DNA of 64,000 nt from Escherichia coli (lineage in GTDB: Bacteria; Pseudomonadota; Gammaproteobacteria; Enterobacterales; Enterobacteriaceae), in NCBI RefSeq assembly GCF_003334385.1, contig NZ_QOWN01000011.1; one strand, given 5' to 3'. The stretch's first letter is position 1, and every line of letters starts with the position of its first letter. The position numbers were made by a program, and so were the translations under genes. Shown piece by piece: positions 24,783 to 48,417 of the stretch. The notes under the pieces were generated by a model. It was not told the origin of the DNA. It did no database searches and was given only the letters and a program-made list of their open reading frames with translations.

Positions 24783-25741
24783 CGATACGCGGCAACAAGA
24801 TTAGCCATCATTTCGATATGTTCCGGCGTGGCATTAAGCGCCGGAATATATTCATATTTTTTCCCGCCGGCACCGAGGAAGACCTCACGGTTTTGCTCGG
24901 CAATCTCTTCCAGCGTCTCCAGACAATCCGCAGCAAAGCCCGGGCACATCACCTGAATATGACCTACGCCTTTTTCTCCGAGCATTTTCAGCGTTTCGTC
25001 GGTATAAGGCATCAGCCAGGGTTCCCGACCAAAGCGCGACTGAAAGGTCATCATCACTTTTTCCGGTGCCATCCCCAATGCGGAAGCCAGTTCACGAGTC
25101 GTTGTGCGGCAACGTTGCGGGTAATCATCGCCTTCATCTGCATAACGCTGGGGAATGCCATGATAAGAGAGCAGTAGCAGATCCGGTTCGCCATGTTTGG
25201 CAAAAGAAGCGCGTACGCTGTTCGCCAGTGCATTAATGTAATCGTGGTTATCGGCGTAATCACGTATAAACGATATCCCCGGAATGCTACGTTTGCGCGC
25301 CAGAATGCGTGCCAGTTCATCCCATACCGCACCGACCGTAGAACAGGAGAATTGCGGATAAAGCGGCAGCACCACAATATGATCTACATGCTCTGCCAGG
25401 AGTTCATCTACGGCGCTTTCCAGTGATGGCGAGCCGTAGCTCATTCCCAGCGCTACGGGCATCTCCGGTAAACGTTGTGCCAGCGCCTGCTGTTGCTGGC
25501 GGCTGTAAACCATCAGCGGCGAGCCACCTTCCATCCAGACAGAGGCATACAGCTTCGCCACACGCGGCGAGCGCAGCGGCAAAATCACGCCGCGCAGCAA
25601 TGGCCACCATAACAACCGTGAGGTATCAACCACGCGTCTGTCGCTTAAAAATTGTTTCAGATAGCGTTTTACCGCTTCAGGTGTGGGGGCATCGGGCGTA
25701 CCCAGGTTTGCCAGCAGGATACCGGTTTTAGTCTGACGCAT
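24779..25741 (-). CDS. hemH: Ferrochelatase, 320 aa
   Basis: Ferrochelatase-family sequence; 3' end overlaps aes 3' end by 4 bp. Confidence 0.93.
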
Positions 25742-25906
25742 TACCGCCTCTTATCGATTCAACTTGTTGATAATTGTAGCGGAAAAGTGAGGAAGAAGAA
25801 CTAATTGCTGTGAGAGGTCAAATCAGAAAAAGGAATAGCGCAGATTGAGGTTTTTGTAAAAGGCCGAATGAATATCCGGCCTGAGATTGCTGATAAGTTT
25901 GCTTGT

Positions 25907-25969
25907 GCGGGCCTGTTCCCCTCACCCTAACCCTCTCCCCGAGGGGGCGAGGGGACTGTCCGTGCGCGC
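25907..25969. repeat. GC-rich palindromic intergenic repeat (boxC-like) downstream of adk
   Basis: tcccctcaccctaaccctctccccgagggggcgagggga: imperfect palindrome; shares the 12-mer ctaaccctctcc with the hairpin after atl. Confidence 0.6.
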
Positions 25970-25976
25970 TTTCGAA

Positions 25977-29772: not shown

Positions 29773-31704
29773 TCAAATGGGGCGGATACTTTCTTCATCC
29801 AGCTCCGCATCGAAGAACCGACGCAGGGTCTGAATATTATTATCCGCAATAATGGACTCGCGCGCCTGCGCAAGTTTTTCTTCGTATATCGCCTGACGCC
29901 ACTCCAGCGGCGTACGCACCGCGGGATTATCATCTTCAACGATAGTCAGTTCAACCGTTGAACCTTTTAACATGCTCAACGCTTCAGCCAGTTTTTGCTG
30001 TGCACCGCGGTTGTTCAAATGCCGCTGAGAGGAGCGCAAATGCAGACATACTGCGTTGTCGCTCTCCTCTTTCCAGGCATTTAACGCCACCTGTTCGACC
30101 AGTTTTGGTAGCGAAAGTTGGCTCACCTGTGCCGCCCACGGGTCGCGCTCAATGGCTTCTGCCGCTAGCTTCGCCGCCAGTTCCGGCGTTTTTTCATGTT
30201 CCAGCGCTTTTTTCAGCGCCTTCGGCGTGGCGACCACTTCTTTTTGCTGCATCACCGGAGTGGTCGCCTTCCAGCGATACGCTTCTTTTTTGGCTGGCGC
30301 TTTTTCCAGCGCCGATGGCACCGGACGCGCCTGAACGCGATCGGTGACCGAAGCCAGTCTTTCCAGCGCAGCGTTATTCACCGGCCGCGCGCGGGTAGCG
30401 GCTGCCGGTTCACTCTTTTTTGCTTTGGTTGCTCCCTGCACGCGCTGCAACTGCTGGCGCGCCGCCAGCACCTGGCTGGTGGTTTCCGGGAGCGGTACAG
30501 TCGGTGCCTGCTGCGGCGCTGATTGCGGTTGCGGCGGCACCTGGGTTGGCGTCATTACTGCCGTTGGCGCGACGGGTGCAAAGGACTGTCGTGGCACTTC
30601 TGGCTCAGGCAGCGGCATACGCGGATGGAATGCCAGCGCGCGCAGCAGCGTCATCTCAACGCCCATGCGACGGTCCGGCGCATACGGTAATTCTTTGCGA
30701 CCAATCAACAGCGTCTGATAGTAAAGCTGAATATCCGTCGGCGGTATGGTGCGCGCCAGTTCACGCATCCGCAGCTCGATGGCGGCCATGTCGTTGCCAA
30801 GTGCAGCAGGCGAAAGTTGTACCATCGCAATACGATGCAACAGGCCGAGCATTTCCACCAGCAACGCTTCCCACTCGATACCACGGGCAGCGGCTTCATT
30901 AATCAGCGCCATTACGCGCTCGCCGTTGGCCTCGACCATCGCTTCAACCAGCGACAGCGCCTGATCGTCGTCAAGCGTACCCAGCATCGCACTGACCGCC
31001 TGGGTTGAAACCTGGCCGTCACCGCTGGCAATCGCCTGGTCGGTCAGACTTAAGGCATCTCGCAGGCTGCCTTCAGCGGCGCGTGCCAGCAATTGCAGCG
31101 CCCGCGGCTCGTGAGCGATATGTTCTTCGTTGAGGATGTGCTCAAGCTGATGGCGAATTTGCTCGACATCCAGCGCCTTGAGATGAAATTGCAGACAGCG
31201 TGACAAAATCGTCACCGGCAATTTCTGTGGATCGGTCGTCGCCAGCAGAAACTTAACGTGCTCCGGCGGCTCTTCAAGGGTTTTTAACAGTGCGTTAAAG
31301 CTGTGGCGCGACAGCATATGCACTTCGTCGATCAGATAAACTTTGAAACGACCACGCGCCGGAGCGTACTGGACGTTATCCAGCAGGTCGCGGGTATCTT
31401 CAACTTTGGTGCGCGAGGCGGCGTCGATTTCAATCAGATCGACAAAGCGCCCCTGCTCGATTTCACGACAGTTATCGCACACGCCGCACGGCGTCGCGGT
31501 AATGCCGGTTTCGCAGTTTAGCCCCTTCGCCAGCAGTCGGGCGATAGAGGTTTTTCCGACGCCACGGGTGCCGGAAAAAAGATAAGCATGATGAATACGC
31601 CCTAACGACAAGCCGTTCGCCAGTGCGGTCAGCACATGTTCCTGGCCGACGACGTCAGCAAAGGTTTGTGGGCGCCATTTTCGGGCTAAGACCTGATAAC
31701 TCAT
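29773..31704 (-). CDS. dnaX: DNA polymerase III tau subunit (gamma produced by frameshift), 643 aa
   Basis: AAA+ clamp-loader motifs (GTRGVGKTS P-loop, SRC motif) plus tau-specific C-terminal domains. Confidence 0.96.
   Translation of the reverse strand: MSYQVLARKWRPQTFADVVGQEHVLTALANGLSLGRIHHAYLFSGTRGVGKTSIARLLAKGLNCETGITATPCGVCDNCREIEQGRFVDLIEIDAASRTKVEDTRDLLDNVQYAPARGRFKVYLIDEVHMLSRHSFNALLKTLEEPPEHVKFLLATTDPQKLPVTILSRCLQFHLKALDVEQIRHQLEHILNEEHIAHEPRALQLLARAAEGSLRDALSLTDQAIASGDGQVSTQAVSAMLGTLDDDQALSLVEAMVEANGERVMALINEAAARGIEWEALLVEMLGLLHRIAMVQLSPAALGNDMAAIELRMRELARTIPPTDIQLYYQTLLIGRKELPYAPDRRMGVEMTLLRALAFHPRMPLPEPEVPRQSFAPVAPTAVMTPTQVPPQPQSAPQQAPTVPLPETTSQVLAARQQLQRVQGATKAKKSEPAAATRARPVNNAALERLASVTDRVQARPVPSALEKAPAKKEAYRWKATTPVMQQKEVVATPKALKKALEHEKTPELAAKLAAEAIERDPWAAQVSQLSLPKLVEQVALNAWKEESDNAVCLHLRSSQRHLNNRGAQQKLAEALSMLKGSTVELTIVEDDNPAVRTPLEWRQAIYEEKLAQARESIIADNNIQTLRRFFDAELDEESIRPI
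30410..30421 (-). other. dnaX: dnaX programmed -1 frameshift site (A AAA AAG, then GAG TGA in -1 frame) producing the gamma subunit
   Basis: Plus strand shows CTTTTTT at 30415-30421, the reverse complement of AAAAAAG; on the mRNA the -1 frame reads AAA AAA GAG TGA; a GC-rich stem-loop (CCGGCAGCCGC…GCGGCCGG) follows. Confidence 0.85.
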
Positions 31705-47234: not shown

Positions 47235-47348
47235 GGGTGGGGGCCCTGCCAGCTACATCCCGGCACACGCGTCATCTGCCTTGGCTGCTTCCTTCCGGAC
47301 CTGACCTGGTAAACAGAGTAGCGTTGCGGGAGAACCAACAGAGCCCCC
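47235..47348 (-). ncRNA. ffs: 4.5S RNA (signal recognition particle RNA), 114 nt
   Basis: Minus strand reads GGGGGCTCTGTTGGTTCTCCCGCAACGCTACTCTGTTTACCAGGTCAGGTCCGGAAGGAAGCAGCCAAGGCAGATGACGCGTGTGCCGGGATGTAGCTGGCAGGGCCCCCACCC, the 4.5S RNA sequence including the conserved SRP domain IV GGAA tetraloop region. Confidence 0.93.
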
Positions 47349-47424: not shown

Positions 47425-47814
47425 ATGCTGGTTTCTTGCGCAATGCGACTTCACTCGGGCGTTTTTCCAGATTATGCTGAAAAATTACCTCAGGAAGAAA
47501 AGATGGAAAAAGAAGATTCATTTCCCCAACGCGTCTGGCAAATCGTCGCCGCTATTCCCGAAGGCTATGTCACCACTTACGGTGATGTGGCGAAACTGGC
47601 GGGATCGCCCCGCGCCGCGCGCCAGGTGGGCGGTGTGTTAAAGCGTCTCCCTGAAGGCAGCACCTTACCCTGGCACCGGGTGGTTAATCGCCACGGCACA
47701 ATTTCGCTAACCGGACCGGATTTACAGCGTCAGCGACAGGCATTACTGGCAGAAGGTGTGATGGTATCGGGAAGCGGGCAAATCGACTTGCAGCGTTATC
47801 GCTGGAACTACTAA
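47425..47814 (+). CDS. atl: Alkyltransferase-like protein (DNA alkylation damage sensor), 129 aa
   Basis: Start at MLVSCAMRLHSG… inside track ORF 47404..47814; MGMT-like DNA-binding fold lacking the catalytic cysteine context. Confidence 0.85.
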   Translation: MLVSCAMRLHSGVFPDYAEKLPQEEKMEKEDSFPQRVWQIVAAIPEGYVTTYGDVAKLAGSPRAARQVGGVLKRLPEGSTLPWHRVVNRHGTISLTGPDLQRQRQALLAEGVMVSGSGQIDLQRYRWNY

Positions 47815-47836
47815 CCCTCTCCGGGCGGAGAGGGTT
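47813..47836. terminator. Bidirectional hairpin between convergent atl and ybaY
   Basis: aaccctctcc-gggc-ggagagggtt perfect 10-bp stem overlapping the atl stop codon. Confidence 0.65.
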
Positions 47837-47844
47837 AACGTCGC

Positions 47845-48417
47845 TTAATATTGCGTAGGAGCTGGAACTGCCGAAGACGGATTCACCTGAGTTGGTGAAG
47901 TCGAAGGTACGGTAGTCGTTGCGCCACCGCTGGCCTGAACCGGCACGGCGGTTTGCTGTACCGGCACCAATGTCAGGTCGGCTTTAGTTCCGCCCTGGTT
48001 GATCACCGGCTGAACGGTATCGGTGATAAATACCAGTTTGTCATTCACGGTAATCGCCGCACTCAACAGAATACGCGCGTTCGGCTGAACATCTGCCGGG
48101 TTAAATGGCAGAACAAAGCTGAATGGTGACTGTTTACCTTCAGTACGCACCGCTTTCTGCGCCAGCACTTTTGACGGTGCATCGGCTAACGACGCGTCAG
48201 AAAGTGTCACGGTCAGCACAGCATCAGGCGGCAGTGCGACTTTCTGACGGATCCAGACGGTACCGGAGACATTCGGTTGCTGGATAGCTGGTTGTTGTGT
48301 TGCTGAAATAGACGTATTTGCAGCCGGTGCTGGCGTCTGAATATCCGCGCTTTTATCTGCGCAAGCCGCCAACGCAATCGCAACCGCTAAACCACTGGCC
48401 ATGTGCACGAGTTTCAT
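47845..48417 (-). CDS. ybaY: Outer-membrane lipoprotein of unknown function, 190 aa
   Basis: Lipoprotein signal MKLVHMASGLAVAIALAAC (lipobox LAAC). Confidence 0.9.
   Translation of the reverse strand: MKLVHMASGLAVAIALAACADKSADIQTPAPAANTSISATQQPAIQQPNVSGTVWIRQKVALPPDAVLTVTLSDASLADAPSKVLAQKAVRTEGKQSPFSFVLPFNPADVQPNARILLSAAITVNDKLVFITDTVQPVINQGGTKADLTLVPVQQTAVPVQASGGATTTVPSTSPTQVNPSSAVPAPTQY

Follow-up and report, generated by a model that had tools for sequence, protein, structure and literature searches.

A 12-mer shared by a BoxC copy downstream of adk and a conserved hairpin between atl and ybaY in Escherichia coli, probably two separate elements

The two sites

The 12-mer CTAACCCTCTCC lies within G+C-rich inverted repeats at two places in a 64,000-nucleotide stretch of Escherichia coli DNA (the window), one downstream of adk (site 1) and one at the end of atl (site 2), which raises the question whether both belong to one dispersed repeat family and what such a family would do. 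The initial annotation took them for a short family distinct from the REP units, likely acting as terminators or protein-binding hairpins. Our reading, to which we give a probability of about 0.85, is that site 1 is a published copy of the BoxC repeat and that site 2 is a separate conserved hairpin, not a demonstrable BoxC member.

The DNA of the window resembles that of E. coli K-12 and runs in the opposite orientation to MG1655. Site 1 is intergenic, 3' of adk, in an adk-hemH spacer of 235 nt with 100% identity to MG1655, and site 2 overlaps the atl stop codon. A search of positions 25000–49000 with Rfam at gathering thresholds gave only the DnaX ribosomal frameshift element (30376–30440, minus strand) and the SRP RNA, that is the 4.5S RNA gene ffs, located directly upstream of atl (47244–47340, minus strand), with none at site 1 or site 2. 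A promoter consensus scan likewise gave nothing at either site.

Site 1, a BoxC copy between adk and hemH

BoxC was first described in 1992 (Bergler) and re-described as the PIT element in 2000 (Hoyne and Maher) (PMC4666352); the same family has been named TMECO type A (Holder 2015, PMC4666352) and HPG1 (Kaplan 2016, PMC5100583), and has also been recovered by a systematic search for stem-loop families. Our search of the literature on TMECO/PIT after 2015 found nothing beyond Holder 2015 and Kaplan 2016. MG1655 has 23 copies, which are always intergenic and are unbiased in strand, gene distance and gene class (PMC4666352). BoxC is a dispersed intergenic repeat of about 50–60 bp with three blocks of 9–10 nt, two of them C-rich and one complementary and G-rich, a single strand of which can fold as a hairpin and in vitro also forms an intrastrand triplex or a G-quadruplex. 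The features of the adk-hemH region are the following.

25741, minus strand: start of hemH
25820–25972, no strand: dimorphic adk-hemH segment, K-12-type allele of 153 nt, includes the BoxC copy
25861–25882, minus strand: separate hairpin GGCCGGAUAUUCAUUCGGCC, then UUUUAC on the adk-sense strand (from an inverted repeat and the RNA fold of 25850–25975)
25907–25965, minus strand: complete BoxC/PIT/TMECO unit, type A with one mismatched triplet (nhmmer envelope)
25918–25953, minus strand: 36-nt three-block core CCCTCGCCCC-CTCG-GGGAGAGGG-TTA-GGGTGAGGGG (TMECO no. 6, HPG1 no. 15)
25927–25938, plus strand: shared 12-mer, made up of the final C of block 1, the TAA loop and the initial 8 nt of the middle block
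25977, minus strand: 3' end of adk

The assignment of site 1 rests on agreement of sequence, architecture and map position. A BoxC profile made from 15 other copies (nine further MG1655 loci at published coordinates and one locus of another strain) matches site 1 with an nhmmer E-value of 1.7e-15 and 52.5 bits, and its envelope is almost exactly the interval marked in the initial annotation. The published G-rich orientation corresponds to the minus strand of the window. The TMECO consensus is CCCTCNCCC-N3-6-GGGNGAGGG-N3-GGGNGAGGG (Holder et al. 2015, PMC4666352), and its reverse complement is fitted exactly by plus-strand positions 25919–25953, the only match in the window, where shuffled sequences give an expectation of 0. 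The reverse complement of the core, CCCTCGCCCCCTCGGGGAGAGGGTTAGGGTGAGGGG, appears in Table 1 of PMC4666352 as entry no. 6, a type A mm element at MG1655 497,843–497,878, and HPG1 no. 15 is placed between adk and hemH, with 38 nt separating it from adk and 177 nt from hemH (Kaplan et al. 2016, PMC5100583). Positions 25902–25965 also have a 64-nt megablast match to the BoxC copy between fimH and gntP of another strain, and the element is multicopy and dispersed, E. coli genomes having a median of 4 megablast places each. The proposal of a dispersed family distinct from REP thus holds for site 1, which belongs to BoxC with its 23 MG1655 copies, but does not extend to site 2.

A consensus structure calculated from 11 type A copies has base pairs only between blocks 1 and 3 and leaves the 12-mer region unpaired as a loop. 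There is no covariation among these 11 copies, and the pairs between blocks 1 and 3 never vary. An outer stem formed by the BoxC flanks was considered and ruled out, as pairing of the flanks is not conserved in the 11 copies.

No terminator-like site was detected on either strand between 25700 and 26050, and no T-tract is present at site 1. The hairpin at 25861–25882, downstream of BoxC, is likely the adk terminator, judging from its stem and the short U-run after it; with only 4 T it is not called by a strict terminator scan. The BoxC copy would then sit between the adk stop codon and this terminator-like hairpin, and is therefore probably transcribed inside the adk 3' UTR.

The spacer itself is dimorphic in E. 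coli. The K-12-type segment is found in 2917 of 5426 complete E. coli genomes (~54%, at a query coverage of at least 80%), and the alternative allele, carried by ~46% of the genomes including O145 and ST131 strains, has in its place about 52 nt of unrelated sequence with a hairpin. When the K-12-type allele was aligned with the O145 and ST131 alleles, a clean insertion of BoxC into the spacer was ruled out, the alleles differing by replacement of the whole segment. As a by-product, the E. coli spacer beside an MLST typing gene is recognized as dimorphic. Site 1 is most likely a structured repeat, selfish or neutral, that would mark a variable, rearrangement-prone spacer.

A more active role for BoxC might follow from non-B DNA, if an intrastrand triplex, or a structure that switches among G-quadruplex, hairpin and duplex, stalled polymerases and so led to local rearrangement or to a change in adk and hemH expression. 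Oligonucleotides form an intrastrand triplex or a G-quadruplex/hairpin in vitro (PMC4666352, PMC5100583), circular dichroism supports a structural switch (PMC5100583), TMECO-bearing loci vary more among strains than others (PMC4666352), and the adk-hemH spacer is one of two alternative forms. Against this, the triplex was not detected by DMS footprinting in vivo, and earlier in vivo tests were without effect (PMC4666352); the two adk-hemH alleles do not represent a clean gain or loss of BoxC, and the repeat need not be the cause of the replacement. We regard such a role as doubtful, though the least improbable of the alternatives considered here.

Distribution of the BoxC core

When representative genomes were scanned for TAACCCTCTCC-N2-7-GGAGAGGG, at least 120 loci were listed, E. 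coli not among them, and the listed matches span Pseudomonas, Boseaceae, Verrucomicrobia, Bacteroidota, Planctomycetota and candidate phyla. Among the matches listed, the upstream block that gives the three-block architecture is present in about 115 of 127 and absent in about 9 of 127; one of the latter, from Pseudomonas, retains the 3' flank of the family, and truncated copies therefore exist. The core (C)CCTC(A/T)CCC-TAA-CCCTCTCC-loop-GGAGAGGG is near-identical between distant phyla while loops and flanks are lineage-specific, and it can occur in many copies per genome, with more than 30 in one Pseudomonas MAG. The wide distribution of the core has already been published.

The core is also found in mobile elements, namely in more than 120 IMG/VR viral contigs (all three blocks in 73 of the 127 prefix matches listed), in 549 PLSDB plasmid records from Rhizobium, Klebsiella, Sinorhizobium, Azospirillum, Aeromonas and others, and in two Campylobacter phage records, counts in which some of the "plasmids" are megabase-sized and the prophage predictions may contain host DNA. 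The occurrence in plasmid and viral sequences contradicts a published statement that the element is absent from phages and plasmids.

The shared 12-mer

Exactly two plus-strand copies of CTAACCCTCTCC, the 12-mer with which CCTAACCCTCTCC-type matching was tested, are present in the window, at 25927–25938 and 47811–47822, and the observation of one motif 3' of adk and again at the atl stop is to this extent confirmed. A minus-strand copy with one mismatch, at 47827–47838, is the opposite arm of the site 2 palindrome. Allowing up to two mismatches, the motif shows no enrichment: 5 matches are found where 2.5 are expected, a number reached in 9 of 100 shuffles. Sharing of an exact 12-mer is commonplace within the window and unremarkable. 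There are 555 direct and 463 inverted pairs, about 1,000 in all, where third-order Markov simulations give about 270 of either kind. This specific 12-mer is nevertheless rare, its chance expectation outside BoxC being 0.05–0.6 copies per genome, and the coincidence is for this reason mild but real. Taken alone, the 12-mer match does not exceed chance.

All 11 type A BoxC copies examined contain the 12-mer. Both sites do lie within G+C-rich inverted repeats, as had been noted, but in different arrangements. The inverted repeat of site 1, 25917–25927/25945–25955, encloses the 12-mer, and at site 2 the 12-mer itself forms the left arm of a palindrome that is perfect over 12/12 positions, TAACCCTCTCCG/CGGAGAGGGTTA. 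The latter copy consists of 8 nt of stem, CCCTCTCC, preceded by the atl stop codon and the final base of the Tyr codon before it ("CTAA"). Four of the 12 bases thus belong to the atl reading frame, stop codon included. The match of site 2 to BoxC is best read as a coincidence, the most likely explanation.

Site 2, the hairpin between atl and ybaY

The features at site 2 are the following.

47812–47837, no strand: perfect palindrome TAACCCTCTCC-GGGC-GGAGAGGGTTA, 12/12 complementary arms
47812–47814, plus strand: atl (ybaZ) stop codon TAA, the end of the ORF, within the shared 12-mer
47814, plus strand: end of atl (ybaZ), which converges on ybaY
47845–47847, minus strand: ybaY stop codon, 7 nt past the hairpin
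47845–48417, minus strand: ybaY ORF, in RefSeq a YbaY family lipoprotein

The palindrome fills the 30-nt gap between the converging stop codons of atl and ybaY; in MG1655 it would lie, by collinearity with the window, at about 475,959–475,984. As RNA, either strand of it has a folding energy of -23.2 kcal/mol, and the z-score is -4.2 for the ybaY-sense strand. Of 5426 E. coli genomes, 5394 have it at a coverage of at least 80%. With a 44-nt query one locus per genome was found in 5117 E. coli genomes, and a dispersed repeat was rejected for site 2, the apparent "2 places per genome" being one palindrome matched on both strands. Site 2 does not match the three-block TMECO consensus and has no third block. 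It is the best non-self match of the BoxC profile in the window, with 6 bits over the middle block and the G block only and an E-value of 0.57, which is not significant even in 64 kb. In sequence the arms equal two blocks, the middle one and the G block, of "perfect" copies of type A BoxC.

Neither strand has a terminator-like site between 47700 and 47950, and no U-tract follows the hairpin. In O157:H7 the locus has diverged by about 9%, with an extra C in the left arm, an extra G in the right arm, another loop and a longer stem, so that the 12-mer is broken and the hairpin retained. In E. coli O127:H6 EPEC1 and E. coli DCE7 an ISEc13 element (IS4/IS50-like) is found in the loop at CCGGGCGG (window 47820–47828), where it parts the two arms.

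Orthologous atl/ybaY junctions were retrieved by way of Atl homologues, and six taxa were compared: E. coli K-12, E. coli O157, S. enterica, S. bongori, Citrobacter and Enterobacter. The junctions outside E. coli read as follows.

S. enterica: TAA-CCCTCTCC-ATTAT-GGAGAGGG
S. bongori: TAA-CCCTCTCC-GGTGT-GGAGAGGG
Citrobacter: TGA-CCCTCTCC-GGGC-GGAGAGGG-TC
Enterobacter: TGA-CCCCTCTCC-CGAA-GGAGAGGGG

The 8-bp core stem CCCTCTCC/GGAGAGGG is invariant and the loops are variable, in what is a small sample of six taxa. Pairing is retained by compensatory change: two pairs are altered on both sides, one of them tied to the TAA or TGA stop codon of atl, which is TGA in Citrobacter and Enterobacter, the pairing partner being also changed in Citrobacter. 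An inserted C is matched by an inserted G in the opposite arm both in O157 and in Enterobacter. The counterpart of "CTAA" in Salmonella is TAT TAA. No third block was seen in any ortholog, and in none of six orthologous junctions were there flanks of the BoxC type, which have TGTTC upstream and GACYGT downstream. In Klebsiella and Kluyvera this position is occupied by other hairpins, with a T-run behind each on the ybaY strand, and these are canonical terminators.

Most likely, site 2 is an RNA hairpin under selection, placed where both converging transcripts have their 3' ends. It would act at the RNA level, where the two transcripts end or get trimmed, and its role may be to terminate the atl and ybaY transcripts or to protect their 3' ends. 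Against this reading, the stem is more invariant across genera than structure alone requires. Classical intrinsic termination is weakened for site 2 by the lack of a U-tract on either strand.

Alternative readings

The identity of the site 2 arms to two BoxC blocks suggests a relation by descent, in which site 2 would be a truncated and domesticated two-block "half BoxC" that became fixed at atl/ybaY, the two sites being one family. Site 2 is, after site 1, the second-best match of the BoxC profile in the window, the 12-mer is expected only 0.05–0.6 times per genome outside BoxC, and truncated copies exist, about 9 of the 127 TAACCCTCTCC...GGAGAGGG matches listed having no upstream block. This reading is at odds with the E-value of 0.57 and with six orthologous junctions, from which third block and BoxC flanks are missing alike. 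"CTAA" is coding sequence plus stop and varies with the taxon, as TGA or as TAT TAA in Salmonella, and the O157 allele keeps the hairpin while it breaks the 12-mer. The hairpin is moreover single-copy, old and orthologous between genera. Common descent is for these reasons unlikely, and the membership of site 2 in the site 1 family, as first proposed, is not sustained. Rather less probable is that some unknown factor recognizing the two-block core CCCTCTCC/GGAGAGGG keeps it in Escherichia, Salmonella, Citrobacter and Enterobacter; if it were true, such recognition might explain the near-identical BoxC core in phyla, plasmids and viral contigs, and site 2, as a functional "mini-BoxC" that has become fixed, would offer a way into what BoxC does.

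The least probable of these readings, to which we attach very little weight, is that the two sites represent a single family located at the 3' ends of genes, as intrinsic terminators or as hairpins that bind protein. Both do lie directly 3' of genes and give stable RNA folds (z-scores from -2.3 to -4.2), and the hairpins of Klebsiella and Kluyvera at the site 2 position are terminators. A T-tract, however, follows neither hairpin; earlier tests, cited by Holder et al., found BoxC to be without promoter or terminator activity, and its copies have no strand or position bias relative to genes (PMC4666352). After adk a separate hairpin followed by UUUU is located downstream of BoxC, and site 2 falls outside the BoxC family. 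The terminator role proposed in the initial annotation is accordingly not supported for BoxC. A role at the 3' end of transcripts is plausible for site 2 only.

The reading of site 1 as a published BoxC copy and of site 2 as a separate hairpin brings nothing new as to the elements themselves: site 1 belongs to a repeat that has been known since 1992 and is itself a catalogued copy, and site 2 is an ordinary conserved hairpin. The lesson is that the sharing of a 12-mer beside a palindrome is insufficient to define a repeat family.

Comparison with known systems

REP or BIME (PU) elements are often located in 3' UTRs, sometimes as inverted pairs. BoxC is likewise short, G+C-rich, palindromic, dispersed and intergenic, but sequence and architecture differ, BoxC having three blocks and REP a single imperfect palindrome, and site 2 is not repeated at all. 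No RAYT-type mobilising enzyme is known for BoxC.

Compared with bidirectional intrinsic terminators, site 2 has in common that a stable G+C-rich stem-loop fills the gap between converging stop codons, but in E. coli it has no flanking A-tract and T-tract and so lacks the U-tract that defines the class. Compared with BoxC, site 2 has in common only TAA and CCCTCTCC...GGAGAGGG, is without the third block and the flanks, and is single-copy, whereas site 1 has the identical 36-nt core, TTA loop and flanks, is intergenic, multicopy and conserved across phyla, and differs from BoxC in nothing.
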